A stretch of DNA of 64,000 nucleotides from Herpetosiphonaceae bacterium (GCA_036401895.1 DASWTW010000024.1:1730-65729); one strand, 5' to 3'. Numbered from the stretch's first letter, positions 1,476 to 22,749 are shown. Translations and numbers: made by a program. Notes: generated by a model not told the origin, from the sequence alone.

Positions 1476-2999
1476 ATGACGAAATACGTTGCCGCAATCG
1501 ACCAGGGTACGACCAGCACTCGCTGTATGATTTTTGATCACGCCGGCCGAGTGATCGCCTCCGATCAGCGCGAGCATGAGCAGATCTTTCCGAAGCCCGG
1601 CTGGGTGGAGCATAACACCGAGGAGATCTGGCAGCGCACGCAGGGCGTCGTGCAGGGCGCGCTGCAAAAGGCCAATCTGACCCACTCCGATCTTGTCGCC
1701 GTGGGCATCACCAACCAGCGCGAGACCACGGCGGTCTGGAACAAAAAGACCGGCAAGCCCGTGTACAACGCGATCGTCTGGCAGGACACGCGCACGGATC
1801 AGATCGTGAACCGGCTGGCGCGCGACGGCGGACAGGATCGCTTCCGCGAAAAAGTTGGCCTGCCGCTGGCAACCTACTTCTCTGGCCCCAAGATTCGCTG
1901 GATTCTCGATAATGTCGACGGCGCGCGCGCGCAGGCCGAGGCGGGCGAGCTGGCCTTCGGCAACATGGACACGTTTCTGGCCTGGTGGCTCACCGGCGGC
2001 CCCAACGGCGGCGTGCATATCACCGATGTCAGCAATGCCAGCCGCACAATGCTGATGAACATGGAGACGCTGGACTGGGACGAGGAGATCATGGGCATTA
2101 TGGGTGTGCCGCGCTCGATGCTGCCCGAGATCAAATCGTCGAGCGAGGTGTACGGCGAGTGCGGAGGCGTCCTGCAAGGCGTGCCGCTGTCCGGCATCCT
2201 CGGCGATCAGCAGGCGGCCACTGTGGGACAGGCCTGCTACGACACCGGCGAGGCCAAGAACACCTACGGCACCGGCAACTTTATGCTGATCAACACCGGC
2301 ACCAGCCTGGTCCACTCCAAGTCGGGGCTGCTGACCACGCCGTGCTACAAGTTCGGCGACAAAGAAACCGTCTGGGCGCTGGAAGGCTCGATCGCGGTGA
2401 CTGGCTCGCTGGTGCAGTGGCTGCGCGATAACCTGGGCCTGATCAGCACCGCCTCGGAGGTCGAAGATCTGGCGCGCAAAGTCGAGGATAACGGCGGCAT
2501 GTATATTGTGCCGGCCTTCTCGGGATTGTTCGCGCCCTACTGGCGCAGCGACGCGCGCGGCGTGATGGTCGGCATGACGCGCTACATCAACAAGAATCAT
2601 ATCGCCCGCGCGGTGCTTGAAGCCACGGCCTACCAGACCCGCGAGGTGCTCGACGCGATGGAAAAAGACTCGGGCGTCACGCTCAAGGCGCTCAAAGTCG
2701 ACGGCGGCATGGTCTACAACGACACACTGATGCAGTTCCAGTCCGACATTCTGGGCGTGCCGGTCGTGCGGCCCAAAGTTGCGGAGACCACAGCGCTGGG
2801 CGCGGCCTACGCCGCCGGCCTAGCCACCGGCTACTGGAAGAACACCGACGAGATGCGCGCCAACTGGGGCATGGATAAGACCTGGGAGCCGCGCATGAGC
2901 GATGATCAGCGCGAGTCGCTCTACGCCGGCTGGAAGAAGGCCGTCACGCGCACCTTCGACTGGGTGGAAGAGGAGCGGGAGGCCGAGGCCAGCGCATAG
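1476..2999 (+). CDS. glpK: Glycerol kinase
   Basis: 507 aa; N-terminus [16 protein letters not shown]... and full-length FGGY kinase architecture; RBS aaggagg 8 nt upstream. Confidence 0.95.
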
Positions 3000-3005
3000 G
3001 CCGGA

Positions 3006-3053
3006 GGCGGGCGAGCACATGCGAACCTGAATCAGCGTGTGTGCTCGCCCGCC
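3006..3053. other. Perfect 14-bp inverted repeat (GGCGGGCGAGCACA / TGTGCTCGCCCGCC) with 20-nt loop, immediately 3' of glpK; no U-tract
   Basis: Read directly; located between the glpK stop (2999) and dhaM start (3087); candidate terminator, attenuator, RNA processing site or protein-binding site. Confidence 0.5.
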
Positions 3054-3086
3054 AGCCGGGAGCAAACGTTCACTGCCGACATTAGG

Positions 3087-3497
3087 ATGGAGGGAGGAGC
3101 TGCCGTGATCGGTTTGCTGATCGTCTCGCATAGCGCCAAAATCGCCGATGGAACCCTGGAGCTGGCCGAGCAGATGACGCGCGGACAAGTTCCGATCGCG
3201 GCGGCCGGCGGCACAGAGGATGGCTCGCTCGGCACCAGCGCCGACCTGATTCGCACGGCGGCGGAGCGGCTGGTGGCAAACGGCGCAGAGGGGCTGCTGG
3301 TGCTGGTCGATCTCGGCAGCGCCGTGATGAGCGCCGAGATCGCGCTGGAAGATTTTCCCCGGCCCTATCGCCTGAGCAATGGCCCGCTGGTCGAAGGCGC
3401 GCTGATGGCGGCGGTTGAAGCCTCGATCGGTGCGAATCTGGAGCAGGTCGCGGCGGTCGCGGTGCAGACCAAAGATCTGCTCAAAGTCCATGATTGA
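3087..3497 (+). CDS. dhaM: PTS-dependent DHA kinase phosphotransferase subunit DhaM, EIIA(Man)-like domain only
   Basis: VIGLLIVSHSAKIADG motif typical of the DhaM/EIIA-Man His-containing domain; GTG at 3105 is an alternative start; RBS GGAGGGAGGAG. Confidence 0.7.
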   Translation: MEGGAAVIGLLIVSHSAKIADGTLELAEQMTRGQVPIAAAGGTEDGSLGTSADLIRTAAERLVANGAEGLLVLVDLGSAVMSAEIALEDFPRPYRLSNGPLVEGALMAAVEASIGANLEQVAAVAVQTKDLLKVHD

Positions 3498-3533: not shown

Positions 3534-3824
3534 ATGATCGAGCAGCACGAATTAATCCTGACGATCGACCACCCCTCAGGGCTGCATCTCAGGCCAGCGG
3601 CCCTGTTTGTCAAAACCGCCGCCAGCTTTCAAAGCGACATCCGCATCACCAATCTGGACCGCGAAGGACAGGCCGAGAGCGACGCCAAGAGCATGTTCGG
3701 CGTCATGCAGCAGGCTGTCTCGCAGGGCCATCGCGTGCGTGTGCGCGCCGAAGGCCCCGACGCCGACGACGCCCTGGCCGGCCTGCAACAGCTCGTCGAT
3801 AGCCGGTTCGAGGCCGAGGCATGA
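3534..3824 (+). CDS. ptsH: HPr-like phosphocarrier protein
   Basis: 96 aa with HPr active-site context HPSGLHLRPAA (His-15); stop overlaps the ptsI start (ATGA). Confidence 0.8.
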   Translation: MIEQHELILTIDHPSGLHLRPAALFVKTAASFQSDIRITNLDREGQAESDAKSMFGVMQQAVSQGHRVRVRAEGPDADDALAGLQQLVDSRFEAEA

Positions 3825-5494
3825 GCCGGCTGCGTGGTCTCGTCGGCTCGCCCGGCATTGCGATCGGCACAATCACGCATCTGGCGCATACAACAGCCCA
3901 CGCAGATACCAAAAGCTCCGATCCACAAACCGATCGTCAGCGGCTGCTCACGTCGCAGGCCGAGGTTGCCGCTCAGCTTCAGCGGCTGGCTGCCGAGCTG
4001 CGCGCCGAGGACAAGCCCGACGAGGCCGGGATCTTCGAGGCGCAGGCGCTGCTGGCCGGCGACTCCGCGCTGGTCTCCGAGGTCGAGCGGCTGCTCGCGG
4101 AGGAGCAGCTAGCGCTGCCTGAGGCTGTGCGCCGCGCTAGCGAGGCCATGGCGGCAACTTTGAGCCGAATCGACGATCCGTACCTGCGTGAGCGCGCCGC
4201 CGATGTGGAGGCGATCGGACAGCAGATTATCGCGACGCTGCAAGGCGTGACCCTCGATCTGCGCTTGCCCGAAGGCGCGATCGTGATCGCCCGCGACCTG
4301 ACGCCGGCCCAAACCGCTAGTCTGCGCGGTCTGGGCATCGCGGGCTTTGCCACGGCGGGCGGCACAGCTACGGGCCACGTCGCGATTCTGGCGCGGGCGC
4401 TCGATATTCCCGCAATCGTGGGGCTCAGCGATGCGCTGCTGGAGCTACCTGACGGAGCGACCGCGATTCTGGATGCCGCCGAGGGCCTGCTGATCGTGGA
4501 GCCGGATGAGGAGGAGCTAGCCACCTACTCCGCGCTGTACACGTCGCGGCAGGAAGATGCGGAGCGCCGCCACGGGCTGCTGAGCCTGCCCGCCGAAACC
4601 AGCGACGGTCAGCGCGTCGAGCTGTGGGCTAACATCGGCCATCCCGACGAAGTGCAGCGCGCGCTTGAGGTCGGCGCCGAGGGCATCGGCCTGTTTCGGA
4701 CCGAGTTTTTATTCCTTGAGCGCTCCGCGCCGCCTGACGAGGACGAGCAGTACGCCGCGTACACAGCCGCGCTGCGGGCGATGGCCGGCCAGCCGGTGGT
4801 GATCCGCACGCTCGACATCGGCGGCGACAAGCCGATTCCGTATCTGGAAGCGATGCAGGAGGCCAATCCTTTTCTCGGCTGGCGCGGCCTTCGCTTTGCG
4901 ATGCGCTTCCGTCAGCTGTTCCAGGTCCAGCTGCGGGCGCTGCTGCGCGCTGCCACCGAGGGCGATCTGCGCATCATGCTGCCGATGGTCGCCACGCCCG
5001 ACGATGTGGCCTGGGCACGCGCCGAGATCGAAGCGGCGACGGCAAGCTTGGCCCAGGAAGCGACTCCGCACCGAGCGGATGTGCCGCTGGGCATCATGAT
5101 CGAAACGCCGGCCGCCGCGATCACACTGGATCTGCTGGCTGCCGGTCTGCGCTTCTGCTCGATCGGCAGCAACGATCTGACACAATACACGCTGGCGGCG
5201 GATCGCGGTGTGGCCGAGCTGGGCCAGCGCTATCGTCACGACGATCCGGCAGTCTTTCGCATGATGCAACTGGCGGTGAGCGAGGCGCGCAGGCTGGGGC
5301 TGGAGATCAGCATCTGCGGCGAGCTGGCATCCGAGCCGGCGGCGGCGCTGGCGCTGGTGGGAATGGGCATCGAAAAGCTCAGCATGACTCCCGCTGCGCT
5401 GCCGGTCGTCAAAGAAGCCATCCGCTCGGCGTCGAGCGAGGAGGCGCGGCAGCAATCACAGCTGTACTTGCAGCGTACGCAGGCAGAAGTTTAG
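3821..5494 (+). CDS. ptsI: Phosphoenolpyruvate-protein phosphotransferase (Enzyme I)
   Basis: 557 aa; N-terminus ...GSPGIAIG..., PEP-utilizing domain, GIGLFRTEFLF signature. Confidence 0.9.
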   Translation: MSRLRGLVGSPGIAIGTITHLAHTTAHADTKSSDPQTDRQRLLTSQAEVAAQLQRLAAELRAEDKPDEAGIFEAQALLAGDSALVSEVERLLAEEQLALPEAVRRASEAMAATLSRIDDPYLRERAADVEAIGQQIIATLQGVTLDLRLPEGAIVIARDLTPAQTASLRGLGIAGFATAGGTATGHVAILARALDIPAIVGLSDALLELPDGATAILDAAEGLLIVEPDEEELATYSALYTSRQEDAERRHGLLSLPAETSDGQRVELWANIGHPDEVQRALEVGAEGIGLFRTEFLFLERSAPPDEDEQYAAYTAALRAMAGQPVVIRTLDIGGDKPIPYLEAMQEANPFLGWRGLRFAMRFRQLFQVQLRALLRAATEGDLRIMLPMVATPDDVAWARAEIEAATASLAQEATPHRADVPLGIMIETPAAAITLDLLAAGLRFCSIGSNDLTQYTLAADRGVAELGQRYRHDDPAVFRMMQLAVSEARRLGLEISICGELASEPAAALALVGMGIEKLSMTPAALPVVKEAIRSASSEEARQQSQLYLQRTQAEV

Positions 5495-5709
5495 GGCGTC
5501 TGCTTGTAGTACATCACCGGCTGGCCGCGCACCTGCGACTGAAGCGAGAGCACCGGCTTGCGCTCGACATGCAGCCTGCACGAATAATCGAACGGCACGC
5601 GGCTAGGATGGTTGCGCGGGTGAGCGCAGCTGCCAAGATATGAGCTAAGCTGGCCCTGCCAGTGGACGCAGGTCTCGCAGAGCGCCTTGCTCCGAGAATA
5701 CATATTCAT
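5491..5709 (-). CDS. Hypothetical small Cys-rich protein (72 aa; C-x2-C ... C ... C)
   Basis: Internal Met (MNMYSR...) of track ORF 5491..5868 is preceded by AAGGA; local GC dip at the start; convergent with ptsI and overlaps its 3' end by 4 bp; no recognisable family. Confidence 0.25.
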   Translation of the reverse strand: MNMYSRSKALCETCVHWQGQLSSYLGSCAHPRNHPSRVPFDYSCRLHVERKPVLSLQSQVRGQPVMYYKQTP

Positions 5710-5915
5710 AGCTATTAGTTCCTTCAGCCTCTCAAGTACTCCCCTGATTCGCGGCGCTAAAGCAAATACTATGCCGAGCAGCGGTGGCTCCGGCCCCCGC
5801 GCCTGACATGTGCAGTCTGTATCGCCTCGGCTGGCTGGAGAGCGAATCAAGTGCCAGCGTGGATGCAACGGATCGATCGGGCTGCGCGTATGTAGGTGAA
5901 TGAAACGGACAAGGA

Positions 5916-7032
5916 GTTAACTGAGGCGTGGTCATAATTGATCACGCGGCTTTCAGACAGGCTTTTAAGCCCACGCGGAGGTCGAGCCCGTGCTCCCAGC
6001 GATACCACAGTAGGAGTTGATACACCACGATCGCCCCGAGCACAAAGCGGCGGGTATTGGTCAACCCTTTGGTGGGGACCTGACCATGGCCATCGAACAT
6101 CCCTTTGAACTGTTCGTTGAAGTTCTCGATCGTGCTGGAACGCAGTTTATGGAAGATGCGTCGGACCTCCACCCCGCCATCGCGATGCGGGTAGCGGCCA
6201 TAGCGCGACGTGATGAGCAGGCGCTCATCTTCGGCGCACACCGCATGGAGGTCGGGCGTGTTGTAATGCCGATCGCCCAACACCACGCGCACGTCTGCGG
6301 GCAGAGCACAGATCAGGGCTGGGGCACGTTCGCTATCAGCCGTGTTAGCGGTTGTCAGTTCCGCCGCCAGTGGAATCCAGACGGCGGCAACCGTCGCGGC
6401 GAGATGCAATTTCCAGCCATAGACCCAGCCATGCCAGCCCGACTTGGTCCAATGGGCTTCGGTATCAATCGATGTGTGGGGTACGGTGTTGGCGGCGCGG
6501 TCCTTCTGATGCCAGACACCGCCACGCGCACGTAACAGCGTGCTCTCCACGGCGACGGCACGACCAGAGCGCGCCCACGGCTGGATCACGCTGACGAGCA
6601 CTCGGCCCAAGCAGGCAATCTGCGCGGGCAAGGTGACAGGCAGGGCGTGCAAGCGGCGTTCCCAGGTCCGACGACTGGGAAACTGTCCGTTGACGGTAAG
6701 CAGTTGGCGCAGGCAGATCATCTCGCTGGTCGGCTGGGCTAACACACTCAACAACTCATGCACGGTATGCAGGTGACGCACAAGCATGATCACCACGGCT
6801 TTCAAGAACAACCGATCGGTATACACGTTGGGTCGACCGGGACCGCGTTTGGGAAGCGGGAGCATCGGCACCCGGTCCACGAATCGGACCAACGTGACAA
6901 GTAGCGTCTCTTGGCCTATCATAACGGCACCTCCGTTTCATGCTGGTGTGGTAACCGTTATGATGCGGTGGGAGCCGCGTTGTGGTCAAGTCCGCACGCG
7001 GCTTTTTGAATTATGACCAACCCTCAGTTAAC
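5916..7032 (-). mobile_element. IS5-family insertion sequence (about 1.1 kb) with about 24-bp imperfect terminal inverted repeats; TTAA present at both junctions
   Basis: Left end GTTAACTGAGGCGTGGTCATAATT (5916-5939); right end reverse-complement GTTAACTGAGGGTTGGTCATAATT (7009-7032); a single 326-aa DDE transposase gene lies inside. Confidence 0.8.
5942..6922 (-). CDS. DDE transposase, IS4/IS5 superfamily
   Basis: 326 aa; DDE_Tnp_1-like sequence with C-terminal ...TIENFNEQFKGMF... motif; RBS GGAGGTG 7 nt upstream of the ATG. Confidence 0.85.
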   Translation of the reverse strand: MIGQETLLVTLVRFVDRVPMLPLPKRGPGRPNVYTDRLFLKAVVIMLVRHLHTVHELLSVLAQPTSEMICLRQLLTVNGQFPSRRTWERRLHALPVTLPAQIACLGRVLVSVIQPWARSGRAVAVESTLLRARGGVWHQKDRAANTVPHTSIDTEAHWTKSGWHGWVYGWKLHLAATVAAVWIPLAAELTTANTADSERAPALICALPADVRVVLGDRHYNTPDLHAVCAEDERLLITSRYGRYPHRDGGVEVRRIFHKLRSSTIENFNEQFKGMFDGHGQVPTKGLTNTRRFVLGAIVVYQLLLWYRWEHGLDLRVGLKACLKAA

Positions 7033-15712: not shown

Positions 15713-15802
15713 GATCGACATTTGGGCAATCTGGCTGGGTGGCGCGTCGATCGACGCGCCATCGACGTTTATGTAGGTAGCGATCAGGTTGAAGGATTTA
15801 GA

Positions 15803-16264
15803 ATGAAGTGGCCGCGTTTCCGCTCCGGCAAATCGGCTGACAGGCCAAGCAGGCTGCCGCCGCCCGCGCTGCTCGACCGGCTGTATCCACGCGTGCTGGG
15901 CTTTGCTTATCAGGTGCTGGGCGATGCCGAGCTGGCAGCGCAGGCAGCCGAGACGATCTTTGTGCGGCGCGATCCGGCCCAAAATGAGCTTGCGGTCTGG
16001 ACGGCCGCCGTGGCCACGATGCGCAGCTACATTGCGCGCGGCTTTGTGGTCCGGCCGCTGGTGCCGCAGACCCAGAGCTGGCAGACCGATCTGCTGAGGC
16101 GGCTGGCGCAGCTAGAGCCGATGGAGCGCGCGCTGCTGCTTTTGCGGTATCATGAGGATCTTGAGCCGGCAGATCTGGCGCAGGTGCTGGGGATTTCCGA
16201 GGATGAGCTGCGCAAGCAGGTGGCGCTGGCACGCGGAAAGCTGCTGGATCTCGCGAATATGTGA
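15803..16264 (+). CDS. ECF-type RNA polymerase sigma factor (sigma-70 region 2 and 4), region 2 degenerate
   Basis: Region-4 HTH RALLLLRYHEDLEPADLAQVLGISEDELRKQ; RBS GAAGGA; followed by an overlapping anti-sigma gene. Confidence 0.6.
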   Translation: MKWPRFRSGKSADRPSRLPPPALLDRLYPRVLGFAYQVLGDAELAAQAAETIFVRRDPAQNELAVWTAAVATMRSYIARGFVVRPLVPQTQSWQTDLLRRLAQLEPMERALLLLRYHEDLEPADLAQVLGISEDELRKQVALARGKLLDLANM

Positions 16265-16599
16265 TGGTTAGTTGTACCGATATTGAGCCGCTGCTCTCCG
16301 ACTACGCCGACGGCATTGCAGATGAGCGCGCCCGGCGGATCGTCGAGCGCCATGTGCAGCTGTGCTCCCGCTGCCGTCAGCGCGTGCAGGCGGCGCATCA
16401 GGTCGCGCAGCAACTGCGGCGCTTGCCGCTGCTGCCGGCCGGTGTGTCGAGCCGGGCGGCGCGCTTTAAGCGGCGGATGGAGGCCCGAGCCATGCGCGAT
16501 CCACGGCGGCTTGAGCACTACCCGTTCTTTGTTTCGGCGCTGCTGGCCTCGCTGCTGATCCTGATCATGCTGCTGGCACTGTTCTACCTCGGCATTTGA
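16261..16599 (+). CDS. Zinc-finger (HxxxCxxC, ZAS-type) anti-sigma factor with C-terminal TM helix
   Basis: HVQLCSRCRQ motif; hydrophobic C-terminus; start overlaps the sigma gene stop (ATGTGATGG). Confidence 0.55.
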   Translation: MMVSCTDIEPLLSDYADGIADERARRIVERHVQLCSRCRQRVQAAHQVAQQLRRLPLLPAGVSSRAARFKRRMEARAMRDPRRLEHYPFFVSALLASLLILIMLLALFYLGI

Positions 16600-16602
16600 G
16601 TG

Positions 16603-16848
16603 CTAGCGATCGCGGTTGCGCCGCTCCTCAGCCAGCTCTTGCTCGTCGCCCCGCAGCAGCCGCACGATCTCGTCGTCGCGCCGCCGGTTCGCCTGCCGCT
16701 CGTTGAGCGAGGCCATCCGCCGCTCCAGGTCTTCCTCCTCCTGCGACATGTTGAGCTGCGACTCCCAGTAGCGCCGGATCGCGAGAAACACCACCACCAG
16801 CAGCGCCGCCACGACCACAAACACGATATTCAGCATCTCTTGGCTCAT
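16603..16848 (-). CDS. Small single-pass membrane protein (81 aa) with strongly charged E/R-rich C-terminal tail, hypothetical
   Basis: N-terminal TM helix IVFVVVAALLVVVFLAI then RRYWES...EEEDLERR...RRRDDE; lies 80 bp downstream of the CHAT-STAND gene on the same strand; the longer start at 16926 is also possible. Confidence 0.4.
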   Translation of the reverse strand: MSQEMLNIVFVVVAALLVVVFLAIRRYWESQLNMSQEEEDLERRMASLNERQANRRRDDEIVRLLRGDEQELAEERRNRDR

Positions 16849-16929
16849 GGTACCAATCCTTAATCGCCATCCCCGGCGATCTCGATCATCTGTTGGAAAT
16901 GTACCATAAACCAGCATAGATGCCACGCG

Positions 16930-19900
16930 CTACGTCTTGCCCTGCATCGCTGCCTGAATATCTGCGATCAGTTGCTGTGTCTTCTGGATCTTGTCCGCTG
17001 CACCTGTACCATAAGGCTCAAAGTTGCGCAGCGCAGCCTGGGCGTAAAGCAATGCATCGTCGAGCCGACCAGCATTAGCGAGAGCAAAGGCAACATTTTG
17101 ACGAGCTTGACCTGCATCATAGAAATTACTTGCCACTTCCAGATAACGGATTGCTTCGCGGTAATGGAATAAAGCCAGGTCCAGATTGCCAACTTTATCG
17201 TAGATATTGCCCAATCCATTATGGGTCACCGCCAGATCACTCACCGCATTTGGTGGCAACAATTCAAGACCTTGAATATAGAATTGGAGTGCAGTATTGA
17301 GATACCTAATCAATTCTTGATGTGGCTGGTTCACAACGTACGCTTCCTTGAAACGCTCATAGGCCACATTCCCTAACGCAATCAAGCACTGAGATCGATC
17401 ATGCTTTACCAACTCTTCAGATATATCCAAACTGTGCTGGTACCAGTGTTCGGCCTGTTCTAAATCGCGAATAGCAACAATATCCTTATAAGCATGACCA
17501 AGGTTGAAGGCGATTAGTGCTTCTTCCTGCTTGTCACCTATTCTCTGACATAGTGCAATTCCGTCTTCGTAAGATACAACACATTCAGACTTGTTTTGTT
17601 CCCGCAGAATGCTACCCAAATTCTCTACTGAGACAGCAAGCGAACGAATATTATTTCGCTGATTTTCATCCAACACTTCCACCGGCAAGGAAAGAGCATC
17701 AGAGGCAAGATGGCGATTCCACTCAACGCGAGAGCGTTGCAATCGCTCAGCATTTATCCAGTCACGCGCTTTGAGAGCTAACCGCACGCGGTACTGACCA
17801 AGTAGCCTCCATTGGTCCTCGCGTCCAGCTAACGGACCGCCACTAACTGGGTCCACAAAGTCTGGCACGATATCGTCCACTAACCACTGTAACTCAGCTA
17901 AGCGGTTTGTGCGGTCGTACAGTAAATATAAGCCTTGCATCGTCCTGATCACCAGGTGCCACCAGCCGTTGTTGTGAGCAATTTGTCGAGCATAAAGAAG
18001 GTTAGCTGCTTCGAGTTTCAGCACGTTGATCGCATCGCGGTTGCCCTGTACGAATTGGGCAGTGTAATAGCTTGACAAGTCGCCCATTGATTCCACATAG
18101 GCACGAGTCGTACCTTGTTGTTGCTCGTTCGTCAAGTAATACTGCTCAAACAGGCTCTTGAAATACCATGGCAGCACGGGGTGAATAGCATAGTAGCCAC
18201 CATATACAGCGAGCAAGCCAACCTCAGCGGCACGGTCTAGCAGCCTGATGCCTGTCTCACGAGTCAATTCGCGTACTTCGGGTAGATCACCAATTTCGGG
18301 ATTACCCATGGCTTGCAGCGTAGCTATCTGCACAAAACCTTGGAAGAAATGCAGCAGCGCGAGGATCTTGCGCTCGTCGTCGGTGAAGGCGTGCTCGAAG
18401 CCGTAGCTCAGGGATGCGCCCAACGATTTCGTGCGGCCTTCGGTTGTTTCGTCCTCGAAAGCTGCCTCGCCTGCGCGGAGTTTGGCGACGAAATCATCGA
18501 TCTGCTTGGTAGTGCGGAGGCCATCGCGAATCGCCTGACCTACGAGAACGGTGATCGTCAGCGGGTTGCCCTGCGTGTACACCAGCAGCGGGTTGAGCAC
18601 TCCAATTTCCTTCTGCTTCCAGCCGTGCTTCTCAGCCAGCGCCCGAGCCAGCTGCTTGCGCTCTTGCAGCGGCATCGGCGGAACCTGGATGCGGGCCGGA
18701 AGATCGCCGAGCCAGCCGCGCTCATCTCGCCGTGAGGTCAGCAGGAATTTTGCCTGGGTTTGCCGCGCCGCCCGTAGAAAATCGGCTAGCTCGCGCTGCT
18801 CCTGCTCGCTCCATGAGGATTGTGTACCAGATGGAAAGCCTGCGACTGGCTCGACGTTGTCCCAGATCCACAGCACCGGAATCTGGCGCAGCACTTGCAG
18901 TGCGACAGCCTGCCGCTGCTCATCTGTCAGCGTGAGCCAGTGGATGTTGTTCTGCTCAAGCAGCGGCTCGAACACACGGCCCAGCGTATCCAGCACACGC
19001 GGCAGCGGCGTGTACTGCTCGAACGAGGTCCACAGCACCGGCCCCTTGATGCCACCCGTCAGCTTATACCAGCGCGCAAACTCGGCCGCAGTCGTGGTTT
19101 TGCCGCTGCCGGCGTAGGCGTGGAGCAGTACCACTTGCTGCGTATCAAACGCGCGATCCAGCGCCAGCAGCGTCTCGTCGCGGCCAAAGAAGCCGGCATC
19201 CGGCTCCGGCGGCACGTTCGCAACGCCCGACTCAGCCGTGGGCGTGGCAGCGGCAGGCTCGAGTTTGATCGCGAGCTTCTGGCTGCGCTTGGGCTTGGGA
19301 AACAATTTGACCGGCTCGGCCTCGTACACGATCGGCACGGGCCAGTCGGCGAGCGGAATAGGCTTAGACACCACCTCACGCAGCGGCCGATCGGCCAGAT
19401 TCTTGCGGCCACGCGACACCGCCTCGCCGAGAGTCAGACCCTGCGTCAAGGTGGCGTACAGCTCGGCCACGAACTGCGCCGCCGTCACCACATACACGTT
19501 GTAGCGCATCGCCACCACGCCGGCCGCGCCCGCGTCCATGACCTCCTGCGCCAGCGAGCCGAACGCCCGCACCTGCTCATGTGGACTAGACGTATCGTCG
19601 GCTGGCGATGCGGAGATTGCAGCGTCTATCGCTGATTGGGAATCGGACGTATGCTCGGCGTGAGCTGAGCGGCAGGCATTCAGCACCAGCACCGGCACGC
19701 CAGTTTCGACCAGCAGATTTCCCAGCGCAGGACCGTCGACGGGCTCGAAGTTGTCGGGCAGCGCGTGGTTCTCGAAGGCCAGGTAGCCATGCTTGCCCGG
19801 CCGGTGGTCGGTGAAGATGTCGGAACCAAATCCACCGCCCACGTTCTGATACTCGCCATAGACGCCGTGCCCATCGAAATGCACGACGTGATAGGGCTCG

Positions 19901-20568
19901 CCGCGATCTCTGGCATCGTGCAGCTCACGGGAAAGCTGCTCGAATGTTGGTGGGCGCAGCACATGCAGATCGAATGCGGCGCGCGCCTCCTTGCTCAACC
20001 CCTTGATCAAACGGCTGGCAACCGAGCGAAACGGCACATCGCTGCGACCACCAGGGCGGCAGATGACCAGCAAGATGCGGATCGGGCCGGATGCACCCGG
20101 CAATCTGGGCGGCTGAGCCGGATTAGAAAGCGTGCGCACAAAGGATTGAGCGCGCAAGGCCAGCGGCCGATCAGTCTGTGGATCGTGGAGCAACTCCCAG
20201 GGAATCGCTGTAGCGTCGCGAACATCGGTGACAATCTCGACCCGCGTTTTTTGCAGATGCTCATACATGCGTGACCAAAGCCGCGTCACGTCGCGATTGG
20301 ACTCGAAAAGCTTGTGAAACAGCTCAGCCCCGATCTCGCGCATCCGCTTTTCGACACGTGCGGCGATCGACGGATTCGGATCATAGGGATGCTGAAGATA
20401 TTCTTCCAGATACCAGCGCAGCTCATTCCGATCTGTGTCGTTGAGCGCAAAAGCAAAACGAGCGACCGCAGTCTGTCGTGATCCGACACCTTCCAGCGCA
20501 AGCTCCACTCGATAGTGATCCGAGCTTTCGGCGAACTGCGTCAGGCGCAACGTCAGACGATCAGGCAT
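16930..20568 (-). CDS. CHAT-domain (caspase-like Cys protease) - NB-ARC/STAND P-loop NTPase - TPR-repeat protein (1212 aa)
   Basis: CHAT His/Cys dyad contexts VVHFDGHG and LVLNACRSA; FFGRDETL...HAYAGSGKTTTA Walker A and LWIWDNVEP Walker B; C-terminal TPR-like helical repeats; RBS AAGGA 8 nt upstream. Confidence 0.85.
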   Translation of the reverse strand: MPDRLTLRLTQFAESSDHYRVELALEGVGSRQTAVARFAFALNDTDRNELRWYLEEYLQHPYDPNPSIAARVEKRMREIGAELFHKLFESNRDVTRLWSRMYEHLQKTRVEIVTDVRDATAIPWELLHDPQTDRPLALRAQSFVRTLSNPAQPPRLPGASGPIRILLVICRPGGRSDVPFRSVASRLIKGLSKEARAAFDLHVLRPPTFEQLSRELHDARDRGEPYHVVHFDGHGVYGEYQNVGGGFGSDIFTDHRPGKHGYLAFENHALPDNFEPVDGPALGNLLVETGVPVLVLNACRSAHAEHTSDSQSAIDAAISASPADDTSSPHEQVRAFGSLAQEVMDAGAAGVVAMRYNVYVVTAAQFVAELYATLTQGLTLGEAVSRGRKNLADRPLREVVSKPIPLADWPVPIVYEAEPVKLFPKPKRSQKLAIKLEPAAATPTAESGVANVPPEPDAGFFGRDETLLALDRAFDTQQVVLLHAYAGSGKTTTAAEFARWYKLTGGIKGPVLWTSFEQYTPLPRVLDTLGRVFEPLLEQNNIHWLTLTDEQRQAVALQVLRQIPVLWIWDNVEPVAGFPSGTQSSWSEQEQRELADFLRAARQTQAKFLLTSRRDERGWLGDLPARIQVPPMPLQERKQLARALAEKHGWKQKEIGVLNPLLVYTQGNPLTITVLVGQAIRDGLRTTKQIDDFVAKLRAGEAAFEDETTEGRTKSLGASLSYGFEHAFTDDERKILALLHFFQGFVQIATLQAMGNPEIGDLPEVRELTRETGIRLLDRAAEVGLLAVYGGYYAIHPVLPWYFKSLFEQYYLTNEQQQGTTRAYVESMGDLSSYYTAQFVQGNRDAINVLKLEAANLLYARQIAHNNGWWHLVIRTMQGLYLLYDRTNRLAELQWLVDDIVPDFVDPVSGGPLAGREDQWRLLGQYRVRLALKARDWINAERLQRSRVEWNRHLASDALSLPVEVLDENQRNNIRSLAVSVENLGSILREQNKSECVVSYEDGIALCQRIGDKQEEALIAFNLGHAYKDIVAIRDLEQAEHWYQHSLDISEELVKHDRSQCLIALGNVAYERFKEAYVVNQPHQELIRYLNTALQFYIQGLELLPPNAVSDLAVTHNGLGNIYDKVGNLDLALFHYREAIRYLEVASNFYDAGQARQNVAFALANAGRLDDALLYAQAALRNFEPYGTGAADKIQKTQQLIADIQAAMQGKT

Positions 20569-21205
20569 GGGCGTTTCCTTTATCGTTCTCTGGGGTTATG
20601 TCGAGCATACCACAGCAGGCGCGGGAAAAACAATCTCAGGCCCGGCACCAAAGCACAGCCACAGCCAGGCGAGCAGGGTCATAGGAACTGTTATCGACCA
20701 GAGGATCAACTGGAAAAAGCGAAGCTGTTACAGGAGATTCAGGTAGCGGCGCAGGCGAAAGAGCGGCTTGCGCCGCTGGTTTGCCCAATCGTGGATGAGG
20801 AGAAGATGCTGCGCGTTGCCGCGAACGGTTGCATAGCGCCGCTCGATCCGCGCCCACGTGAGTCGTTGTGGATCGCTGTCATCGAGCGTACGAGACTCTG
20901 TACGTGCGTGAGTCTCTAAAGCTTCTGCACGCCGAATAATATCGACAAGCTGCGCGCGGTAGTTTGCCCCACTTTTACGATGGTCAGGAACCATCATAAA
21001 TGACCACCTCGCGTCTAAAACTATCGACAGTATAGCGTAAATTACGTACAGCGTGAAGCGATTGAATCCTTCATTTAGCAATCTTAACTGGATGTTGACA
21101 ATTTTATACTTTACTACAGTACGTAATACATCTATCAGAACATGAATTCGTTCTCGACACCCAACATACGCCTTTGTACCGCGACTGGACGCAGCGACGC
21201 GCACG

Positions 21206-21234
21206 AAAAAGCGACACTCCCTAAGGAGTGTCGC
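21206..21234 (-). terminator. Perfect 10-bp hairpin GCGACACTCC-ttag-GGAGTGTCGC followed by UUUUU (minus-strand sense), 3 nt after the tRNA 3' end
   Basis: Read directly. Confidence 0.7.
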
Positions 21235-21237
21235 TGG

Positions 21238-21314
21238 TGGTGGGCGATACTGGACTCGAACCAGTGACCTCTGCCGTGTGAAGGCAGCGCTCTAACCAAC
21301 TGAGCTAATCGCCC
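21238..21314 (-). tRNA. tRNA-Val: tRNA-Val (anticodon CAC), 3' CCA encoded
   Basis: Reverse complement GGGCGATTAGCTCAGTTGGTTAGAGCGCTGCCTTCACACGGCAGAGGTCACTGGTTCGAGTCCAGTATCGCCCACCA folds as a canonical cloverleaf (7-bp acceptor, anticodon loop TTCACAC, T-loop TTCGAGT). Confidence 0.95.
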
Positions 21315-21339: not shown

Positions 21340-21530
21340 AAGTATCTTTCGTGCAAGGAGCGCGAAGCACCAAGAACCAAGAACAAAGGAACAAAGAAAC
21401 AAGCGAACAAACGGAGAACTGAGAACACAGAACCAAAAGCAGAACTGCAAAGTACCAGATTCCCCTCTCCTGCGGCGGCGGGAGAGGGGGTGCCGAACAA
21501 CGTGAGGCGGGGGTGAGGGCCTGCCCAAAC
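21340..21530. repeat. Composite intergenic repeat (GAACNNN heptamer array plus GC-rich module CCCCTCTCCTGCGGCGGCGGGAGAGGGGG...GGGGGTGAGGGCC)
   Basis: Read directly; lies between tRNA-Val and the YcaQ-like gene. Confidence 0.65.
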
Positions 21531-21531
21531 C

Positions 21532-22749
21532 TCATGCCCGTACTGCCGCCTGCAAGACCGCCTGTAGCTGCGCCGGCTCGCTCCTGTCGATCACAACCTC
21601 GGGCGTGCGATGCCACCGCGCGCAAGACAGCAGCATCTGAGCAAGATCCGCCACCACCGCATCGTCGAGGGTGACGTGCGGCTCAAGATAGATCGCCTTG
21701 ACCCGAAACACGCCGGCTTTGCGCTCGGCCTTGGCATCCAGCCGCCCGACCAGATCGCCGCGCCGCAGGATCGCCAGCACGAAGTAGCCGTAGCGCCGCT
21801 TGGGCTCGGGGACGTAGCACTCCAGCACATATTCAAAGCCCCACAGATCCCTCGTGCGATCGCGATGCCAGATCAGGCTGTCGAAGGGCGTCAGCAGCGT
21901 GGTGTGCTCCGGCGTGGGCAGGCCGCTCGTAAATTGCTGCCAGCTACCGCGATGAACGTAAACGGGCGCGGACCAATCCGCCACCTGCACGCGCTCGGCC
22001 AGCCCCTCGCCGACAAGCGACTCAAGCACCTGGGCTAATCCGGCCTGCTTCTGGCGAAAATAATCGGCCAGCTGGCGCGTCGTAGCCAGCCCCATCGCCT
22101 GGAGCGCGATCTCCGCCAGCCGCCGCCGTCGCTCCTCCTCGGTGGGAAGCTGCGAGTCGTCCCAGCCGGGCAGGAGCCGCTCACGCAGATCGTAGCGCCG
22201 GTGGAAGTTCACCCGCCGCTCGATCATCAGCTCGCCGCTGGTCCACAGCGCGTCAAGCGCGATCTTAGCGGGCTTCCAGTCCCACCAGCCGCCGCCTTTA
22301 TGTCCCGAAGGCGCTTCGAAATCGGCCGCGCCCAGCGGCCCACGCTCGCCGATCTGAGCCAGCACATGCTCCATAACTTCGGCGTTCTCGGCGCGCCACT
22401 TCGCCCACCCGCCGCTCTCACCGTTCGCATACTCAAGCATCCGGCTGCGAAAAAGCGGCCAGTGCTCGATCGGAATGATGCTGGCGGCGTGCGCCCAGTA
22501 CTCGAACACCTGCCGATCGGGATACAGCAACTCGTCCAGCCAGGCCGGATCGTACTCGCCGAGGCGGCTCCACAGCACAAAGTAAGGGCTGCGCGCCACC
22601 ACATGAATCGTATCGATCTGAAGGCAGCCGAGCCGCCGGATCACATCCAGCACATCGGCCTTTGTTGCAGTGTCAGGCCGACGATCCAGCGCCTGAGCCG
22701 CGACCGCAATCCGCTGCGCTTCGGTCAGCGTAAGATTGGTTGTTGACAT
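21532..22749 (-). CDS. Winged-helix DNA-binding protein of the YcaQ/DUF1006 family (putative DNA glycosylase)
   Basis: 405 aa; overall similarity in pattern (conserved W/Y-rich core, C-terminal wHTH) recalled from this family; not verifiable here. Confidence 0.45.
   Translation of the reverse strand: MSTTNLTLTEAQRIAVAAQALDRRPDTATKADVLDVIRRLGCLQIDTIHVVARSPYFVLWSRLGEYDPAWLDELLYPDRQVFEYWAHAASIIPIEHWPLFRSRMLEYANGESGGWAKWRAENAEVMEHVLAQIGERGPLGAADFEAPSGHKGGGWWDWKPAKIALDALWTSGELMIERRVNFHRRYDLRERLLPGWDDSQLPTEEERRRRLAEIALQAMGLATTRQLADYFRQKQAGLAQVLESLVGEGLAERVQVADWSAPVYVHRGSWQQFTSGLPTPEHTTLLTPFDSLIWHRDRTRDLWGFEYVLECYVPEPKRRYGYFVLAILRRGDLVGRLDAKAERKAGVFRVKAIYLEPHVTLDDAVVADLAQMLLSCARWHRTPEVVIDRSEPAQLQAVLQAAVRA

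Follow-up and report, generated by a model that had tools for sequence, protein, structure and literature searches.

Proteins that combine a CHAT or caspase-like protease with a STAND NTPase and with TPR or WD40 repeats have been noted in bioinformatic surveys since 2002. We analyzed a gene of this architecture, called here the CHAT gene, in a 64,000-nucleotide stretch from a Herpetosiphonaceae bacterium (GCA_036401895.1 DASWTW010000024.1:1730-65729); this whole stretch is the window, and coordinates given without a locus label are counted from its first letter. Several described systems resemble the gene. The Avs1-5/AVAST and bNACHT families (PADLOC-DB 2.0) are likewise tripartite, with effector, NTPase and sensor, and are likewise single-gene and horizontally spread. 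KrAvs12 from Ktedonobacter racemifer (Chloroflexota) is a caspase-like STAND protein whose trigger is a phage structural protein (Evans et al., 2025, PMC12642450); the same source describes the pairing of a protease with a latent effector as a common logic, and also a partner-less caspase-like protease that protects E. coli from phages. Caspase-STAND fusions are found in "System 4" (Kaur et al., 2020, PMC7159879), caspase-like Apaf-1 orthologs are among the defense-associated STAND clades while many STAND clades are non-defense (Lee et al., 2026, PMC13581612), and CHAT-NLR architectures have been reported to be enriched in multicellular bacteria (bioRxiv 10.1101/2020.01.06.895854). PH0952 of Pyrococcus horikoshii is a STAND protein with a TPR sensor, and a model for double autoinhibition by such a sensor (PMC6468293). 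The CHAT proteases of Craspase (TPR-CHAT/Csx29), SAVED-CHAT and DdvA are activated by an upstream sensor, the known triggers being a CRISPR effector or target RNA, cyclic oligoadenylate, and membrane signaling.

The CHAT gene extends this picture and overturns nothing in it, since the architecture is already described and related caspase-Avs proteins have been characterized. What the locus adds is evidence from empty sites, a sensor swap shown by synonymous divergence (dS), the size and conservation of the family, and unannotated downstream genes in related loci. With modest confidence, we read the CHAT gene product as one self-contained NLR-like (STAND) sensor that acts through a caspase-like output, comparable to an apoptosome within a single polypeptide.

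Insertion of the CHAT gene

The open reading frame (ORF) list and translation place the CHAT gene at 16930..20568 on the minus strand, with an ATG start and a TAG stop, and confirm the 1212-amino-acid (aa) product described in an earlier account of the window made from the DNA alone (the sequence-only reading). The protein has a 100% database match, annotated 'CHAT domain-containing protein [Herpetosiphonaceae bacterium]'.

Five related loci of the same gene order were recovered. The closest, L002 (ENA ERZ23268497; flanking proteins 87-97% identical to those of the window), carries the CHAT gene, in the order DAO, PGM, AlkZ, tRNA-Val, orf89, CHAT gene, tm81, anti-sigma, sigma, PRPP synthetase. 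The other four lack it: L171 (JGI 3300073980; PGM 92% identical), L172 (GCA_034691565.1; PRPP synthetase 90%), L173 (GCA_034691575.1; PGM 87%) and L003 (MFD02840.bin.2.207; PGM 84%), the last of which lacks the sigma/anti-sigma pair as well. L171, L172 and L173 share the order AlkZ, tRNA-Val, orf89, tm80/81, anti-sigma, sigma, PRPP synthetase, with an empty-site spacer of 110-140 bp between orf89 and tm81; in L003, orf86 and tm78 are separated by 41 bp. The sequence-only reading had suggested looking for relatives in which this interval is empty, and it is indeed free of the CHAT gene in L003, L171, L172 and L173, and occupied in the window and L002 only. Empty sites in the four more distant relatives, with occupied ones in the closest pair, indicate that the insertion is the derived state.

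Junction alignment with the four empty sites delimits about 3.8 kb of inserted DNA at 16907..20702 (minus strand), with boundaries good to about +/-20 bp. The insert consists of a leader, the CHAT ORF and about 25 nt past the stop codon. The 5′ leader (20569..20702, minus strand) is found in the window and L002 and is absent from the empty sites; it contains a conserved block, TTGTTTT...TGTGGTATGCT, and a putative CHAT promoter, which was assigned by reading the sequence and was not called by the consensus scan. The CHAT gene is accessory, and was acquired horizontally as an insertion of one gene that brought its own leader. In base composition it is atypical and foreign, with a GC content at third codon positions (GC3) of 0.4-0.75 compared with about 0.8 in the flanking genes.

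A different account had been given in the sequence-only reading: a 4.6-kb multi-gene island, made up of unassigned DNA, the CHAT gene and a membrane protein, and integrated site-specifically at the 3′ end of tRNA-Val. The tRNA-Val(cac) gene itself is real (21238..21314, minus strand; ARAGORN, Rfam 73 bits), and its neighborhood is variable, with a 907-aa STAND gene on the other side of it in L172 and no sigma pair in L003. Absence of the CHAT gene from relatives also suits a tRNA-targeted island, yet it was the only feature of such islands that we found; insertion at the tRNA 3′ end, an integrase, and attL/attR sites were not. The insert is about 3.8 kb and, rather than abutting the tRNA, begins about 535 bp away from its 3′ end; the insertion point is the spacer between orf89 (20728-20997, minus strand) and tm81 (16603..16848, minus strand), which are both resident, and the conserved orf89 stands between insert and tRNA. 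No integrase or recombinase gene is in the insert, whose sole gene is the CHAT ORF, no target duplication appears in the junction alignments, and a search turned up no inverted repeats. The partial tRNA 3′-end direct repeat that the sequence-only reading had proposed as a check was not found, the lone 12-nt match being a chance one inside the ORF. The island model is refuted by the empty-site alignments and we give it almost no credence; tRNA-Val(cac) marks the variable region without being the site of insertion.

Other differences among the related loci touch the same region. In L172 a different STAND gene, HTH_3-NB-ARC/AAA_16-TPR_MalT and 907 aa long (3570-6293, plus strand), lies between AlkZ and the same tRNA-Val; STAND-type genes have therefore landed repeatedly in the neighborhood of tRNA-Val. 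The same interval of L172, from AlkZ to tRNA-Val, also holds a 329-aa ORF (1647-2636, minus strand) that has no Pfam hits. The sigma/anti-sigma pair (window 15722-16599) is present in L002 and L171-L173 and absent from L003 (17125-18415), the most distant syntenic relative, which is a second, independent indel in the interval. L173 has a Fic-domain gene and a 128-aa ORF between DAO and PGM (2608-3406) that are absent from the window.

Exchange of the sensor

The CHAT proteins of the window and L002 are 70% identical, well below the identity of their flanking proteins. At the DNA level the flanks are about 0.9 identical; identity drops to about 0.8 between 20600 and 18100 and to about 0.6 between 18100 and 17100, and is back at 0.94 just past the stop codon. 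Synonymous divergence is uneven too: dS is 0.39 for codons 1-110, 0.87 for 111-440, 0.65 for 441-820 and 2.7 (saturated) for 821-1150, compared with 0.20-0.43 in nine flanking genes, while the ratio of nonsynonymous to synonymous divergence (dN/dS) is 0.14-0.43 in every segment of the CHAT gene. Because excess dS cannot arise by selection on the protein, the DNA was imported from a divergent family member. This shows that the sensor was replaced by recombination with such a member, in a gene under purifying selection.

The exchange breakpoint, at about aa 785-810, falls in the structural model where the winged-helix domain ends and the helical-repeat (TPR-like) sensor starts; the exchanged segment is this 410-residue sensor, aa 800-1212 (16933..18171, minus strand). 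Its identity between window and L002 is 54%, similar to that between the window and homologs of other phyla (mean 52%, best 61%). GC3 in the sensor is about 0.40-0.45 in both alleles, against about 0.8 in host genes. A search with aa 801-1212 for the donor of the window allele found none above about 60% identity; this search, its sensitivity limited by TPR word saturation, missed the protein's own entry. We conclude that the gene was inserted once and that recombination later replaced mainly its sensor, with purifying selection continuing.

Predicted protease, switch and sensor

The layout claimed in the sequence-only reading, a CHAT effector, a P-loop STAND switch and a TPR sensor, is upheld by Pfam, AlphaFold models and fold matches. 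The motifs it quoted were all located in the translated protein: VVHFDGHG at aa 228-235, LVLNACRSA at 294-302, GSGKTT at 487-492, and hhhhDNVE, which is WIWDNVE, at 567-573. AlphaFold models (AF2) were built from a 115-sequence alignment in two segments, aa 1-450 (pLDDT 85.3) and aa 440-1212 (pLDDT 87.9). Conservation was counted over 120 full-length homologs, in which H230 and D570 are invariant (120/120), K490 is retained in 119, and H234 and C299 each in 118.

The CHAT domain (aa 109-395; 19384..20244, minus strand) matches the CHAT family PF12770, of the caspase-hemoglobinase fold, with E 6e-16 and 59.2 bits, above the curated cut-off of 24. Its His motif (19864-19887) and Cys motif (19663-19689), both on the minus strand, include HFDGHG and LNACRSA, which are conserved across the homologs, and the intact His/Cys dyad is the predicted active site. 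The fold matches of the N-terminal model are DdvA (8rot), Craspase TPR-CHAT (7zoq/7y84), the SAVED-CHAT filament (8tl0) and separases; these CHAT/separase proteases match with E 4e-8 to 1e-6, while classical caspases reach only about 1e-3. Alignments with DdvA, Craspase TPR-CHAT and separase extend over about 420-450 columns, and the likeness to the CHAT proteases covers the whole 450-residue N-terminal region; the window protein differs from them in its fused STAND NTPase. Ahead of the protease core the model has a beta/alpha domain (aa 1-107; 20248..20568, minus strand) with strands at 5-39 and helices at 44-102, probably equivalent to the pseudo-protease or scaffold half known from CHAT/separase proteins. 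Right after the catalytic Cys is a variable loop (aa 303-331; 19576..19662, minus strand; pLDDT 58-69), with a column entropy of 1.92 bits as against 0.8-1.0 in the core; this loop, aa 236-258 and aa 421-458 are the three most variable segments of the family. Caspases have their inter-subunit linker at this position, and the loop may serve for autoprocessing.

The nucleotide-binding oligomerization (NOD) module (aa 459-799; 18172..19194, minus strand) comprises a P-loop nucleotide-binding domain, a helical domain and a winged helix. On the minus strand its Walker A motif GSGKTT is at 19093-19110, Walker B WIWDNVE at 18850-18870, and the GxP motif GNPL at 18559-18570; K490 and D570 of the Walker motifs are among the conserved residues above. 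The Pfam check suggested in the sequence-only reading gave a mixed outcome: CHAT scores above its cut-off, TPR profiles match, and NB-ARC falls below, though the fold is NB-ARC-like. All Pfam NTPase profiles in fact stay under their gathering scores (AAA_16 30.2 against 32.6, NACHT 20.1 against 26.7, NB-ARC 13.1 against 23.5; nSTAND1 and nSTAND3 are likewise below cut-off), and because profile membership fails in this way the module is taken to be a divergent STAND clade. The aa 440-1212 model matches PH0952 (6mfv), Apaf-1, CED-4 and plant NB-ARC proteins, and its succession of nucleotide-binding, helical and winged-helix domains resembles that of solved STANDs, so the fold places the protein, as modeled, in the STAND class.

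Among solved structures the top match is PH0952, which aligns across NOD, arm and TPR with 782 aligned columns (E 1.4e-12); it differs in having no protease effector, and sequence identity is 14%. Apaf-1, CED-4 and the NB-ARC proteins have the closest NOD fold, and the output of the window protein is likewise a caspase-family protease as in the apoptosome, here fused rather than recruited through a CARD. It differs in having a TPR-like sensor where the apoptosome has a WD40 propeller, and a CHAT-type protease where it has a p20/p10 caspase, and the NB-ARC score of the window protein is, as noted, far below the Pfam cut-off. The sensor is modeled as all-helical repeats over aa 800-1212, with Pfam TPR_12 and TPR_1 matches at the C-terminus, and has a likeness to the peptide-binding TPRs of RapH and PlcR. 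Its relatives of solved structure by sequence are generic TPR proteins only, whether a single sequence or a family profile is used.

KrAvs12 is similar in having an N-terminal caspase-superfamily protease, a STAND NTPase and a large C-terminal sensor, in its Chloroflexota host, and in its expected logic, ligand-induced oligomerization that activates the protease. Its catalytic Cys is C152, whereas that of the window protein is C299, in a larger CHAT/separase-like fold. KrAvs12 also needs an upstream EACC1 pro-toxin, unlike the CHAT family, which has no conserved upstream ORF (the two were compared by their descriptions). In the window the arrangement of an EACC1-caspase gene pair was not found: orf89 has no transmembrane segment and is resident, and tm81 is 3′ of the CHAT gene and also resident.

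A mechanism can be proposed from knowledge of STAND proteins (MalT, PH0952, Apaf-1, Avs) and CHAT proteases. In the resting state the TPR sensor and winged-helix arm would keep the NOD closed, as in PH0952. A macromolecular ligand, most likely a conserved protein of a phage or mobile element, would bind the sensor and open the NOD, which would then exchange ADP for ATP and oligomerize. The oligomer would gather the N-terminal CHAT domains, activating them by proximity. Since no dedicated substrate gene is linked at the locus, the protease would act on a protein of the host or the invader, such as a conserved host protein or one of the phage, or on itself, and the infected cell would stop growing or die (abortive infection).

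Genomic context and probable role

Between the CHAT gene and tRNA-Val the sequence-only reading had seen about 670 bp of unassigned DNA. That interval is in fact occupied by the tRNA-Val terminator hairpin (21210-21235, minus strand; terminator scan), a promoter-like site found by scan between tRNA-Val and orf89 (21057-21029, minus strand), orf89, and the CHAT leader of about 135 bp; in an Rfam scan of the region tRNA alone was found. orf89, of 89 aa, is a resident gene outside the module. It has homologs in 26 clusters (86-90 aa, 56-96% identity), is 92% identical to its L002 counterpart with dN/dS 0.13, and is a genuine, conserved small gene without Pfam, NCBIfam or PADLOC hits. It stands just 3′ of tRNA-Val(cac) in every locus examined (L002, L003, L171-L173). 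The tiny membrane protein on the same strand that the sequence-only reading had joined to the module does exist: tm81 is an 81-aa single-pass membrane protein, 91% identical in L002 and without significant Pfam or PADLOC hits. Its place in the module did not hold up, as it is found beside orf89 in the four CHAT-less relatives. More than 80 other family loci have no homologs of orf89 or tm81, and both were rejected as partners of the CHAT gene: among the loci they occur only in L002, L003 and L171-L173, with or without it.

The other neighbors at the locus include the AlkZ-like, PGM and PRPP synthetase genes. Flanking genes on both sides had been described as lying on the opposite strand; this is true of the Sigma70_r4_2 ECF-type sigma and zf-HC2 anti-sigma genes (plus strand), and the AlkZ/YcaQ-like gene (21532-22749) is on the minus strand, the same as the CHAT gene. 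A functional link to the sigma/anti-sigma pair, for which DdvA and Craspase-Csx30 offer precedents, was rejected on the presence of the pair in CHAT-less relatives, and sigma-like neighbors occur in about 4 independent loci of about 85 in the family, approximately at chance level and not specifically related. The gene set that accompanies a type III-E Craspase (gRAMP/Cas7-11, Csx30, Csx31 and RpoE) was not found at the locus, nor were CRISPR, CBASS or Thoeris genes. A degenerate tandem repeat at 21365-21411 (about 5 copies of a unit close to GGTTCTT, minus strand) falls within the T-rich tract that precedes the tRNA-Val promoter; this stretch is poorly conserved compared with L002 (identity 0.48 over 21500-21401).

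When aa 1-830 were used for an exhaustive, profile-free search, 7698 cluster representatives reached E<=1e-3 and 1369 clusters (50% identity) reached E<=1e-30. The best 150 clusters are mostly of 1160-1280 aa and match over the full span. Full-length homologs with 57-70% identity are found in Chloroflexota, Competibacteraceae, Acetothermia, KSB1 and Acidobacteriota. Some copies have mobile surroundings: a 43%-identical full-length relative (L089:7968-11657, IMGVR_UViG_2593339134_000005) is encoded on a viral contig of 58.6 kb, between a NinB-domain gene and the large terminase gene; a 56%-identical copy (L088:7650-11669, IMGVR_UViG_3300035659_003157) has a 666-aa large serine recombinase and an HsdM-type methylase as neighbors; and a Competibacteraceae copy is flanked by toxin-antitoxin genes. 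A second Herpetosiphonaceae copy (P0003, GCA_036402055.1), whose context is unrelated, has a DDE-transposase HTH_Tnp_4 fragment directly after it (L001:3878-4857), which suggests movement associated with an insertion sequence in that genome.

The family is mostly solitary amid housekeeping genes, as seen at 61 loci with a complete gene. About 30% of the loci have one of three conserved same-strand genes directly downstream, and about 70% are solitary. The first of these downstream families, of about 220 aa, is found at 9-11 of the 61 loci (e.g., L085:10858-11529, L091:10274-10933, L103:9470-10126); the second, of about 305 aa, at 7-8 of the 61, in some cases overlapping the stop codon (e.g., L098:11703-12626, L100:5024-5938, L169:7193-8113); and the third, of about 200 aa, at 3 loci (L099, L150, L160). 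Comparison with Pfam, PADLOC and PDB sequences gave no match for any of the three, which are candidate protease substrates or effectors. No conserved small ORF is found upstream across the 61 loci. An EACC1, Pepco or gasdermin partner was considered and set aside, on the lack of a conserved upstream ORF and of PADLOC or Pfam hits among the downstream families.

None of the three downstream families is represented in the window. It might be supposed from this, together with the common logic of protease and latent effector (PMC12642450), that the window copy is an orphan that has lost a downstream pro-toxin partner and is inert or decaying. We consider this quite improbable: about 70% of family loci are solitary too, the insert boundaries leave a partner gene no room and there is no remnant of one, and partner-less caspase-like proteases can protect against phages (PMC12642450). 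The ORF, moreover, is intact, its catalytic and P-loop residues are kept, and its dN/dS is in the range of purifying selection given above for all segments.

We infer a function in defense or cell death from the architecture and the evolutionary behavior of the gene, and by a modest balance of probability its role would be abortive infection directed against phages or other mobile genetic elements. Several observations weigh against this assignment. PADLOC finds no Avs, bNACHT or other defense model in the protein, only its generic 'TPR' model PDLC01169 and a sub-threshold mad8; with NACHT and NB-ARC also below cut-off, the description "Avs/bNACHT-type" in the sequence-only reading does not stand as a statement of membership. 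Association of the family with defense islands appears weak by raw counts: among 133 immediate neighbors (about 55 loci) no Pfam family recurs more than 2 times, and the PADLOC hits among them are sporadic (mad8 3, mad3 2, and single HEC-01A, PDC-S15, PDC-M07A, AriA and NsnB). GenBank phages and PLSDB plasmids contain only distant relatives, of at most 33% identity. The sensor is just moderately variable, at about 52% mean identity, and the 57-63% identity of the proteins across phyla could also fit a conserved cellular ligand. To our knowledge, no trigger, substrate or phenotype has been reported for any family member. The apparently weak defense-island association, the lack of a PADLOC match and the unusually high cross-phylum conservation call for caution about an immune role.

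The same observations bear on whether the protein might be a non-immune regulatory or cell-fate switch, in which an endogenous signal (such as a peptide, a protein damaged by stress or, in filamentous bacteria, a cue of development or kinship) leads to limited proteolysis of a regulator, as with separase or DdvA, or to developmental death or allorecognition. The housekeeping surroundings without evident defense-island enrichment and the full-length conservation across phyla would suit such a switch, as would the best protease structural match, to the anti-sigma factor DdvA (8rot), and the resemblance of the sensor to the peptide-binding TPRs of RapH and PlcR; many STAND clades are, besides, non-defense (PMC13581612), and CHAT-NLR architectures are reported to be enriched in multicellular bacteria (bioRxiv 10.1101/2020.01.06.895854). 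A regulatory switch is harder to reconcile with a one-gene insertion of foreign composition whose presence varies among very close relatives, with the swapping of the sensor by recombination, and with copies on a phage contig and beside a serine recombinase and a restriction-modification methylase. The family also occurs in non-filamentous lineages, the ECF sigma/anti-sigma pair also resides in relatives that have no CHAT gene, and ECF sigma neighbors are not enriched in the family. We regard a regulatory switch as rather unlikely, and abortive infection as the most probable role.

Tentatively, and with more doubt than conviction, the CHAT-NOD-TPR family of about 1200 aa could be taken as a major uncharacterized clade of bacterial pattern-recognition receptors in environmental phyla, each a "one-chain apoptosome". 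Where solitary, its members would kill by cutting a conserved target, of the host or of a phage; the three downstream families would be new protease-activated death effectors; and alleles at a fixed chromosomal site would trade their sensors as cassettes. For the Herpetosiphonaceae locus, the occupied and empty sites together with the breakpoint at the boundary between NOD and sensor are direct evidence of a modular sensor swap in which switch and effector were kept. The family, being large, constant in length and highly conserved, is suited to trigger screens and structural work, and the downstream genes in its subsets are candidates for new protease-activated effectors.

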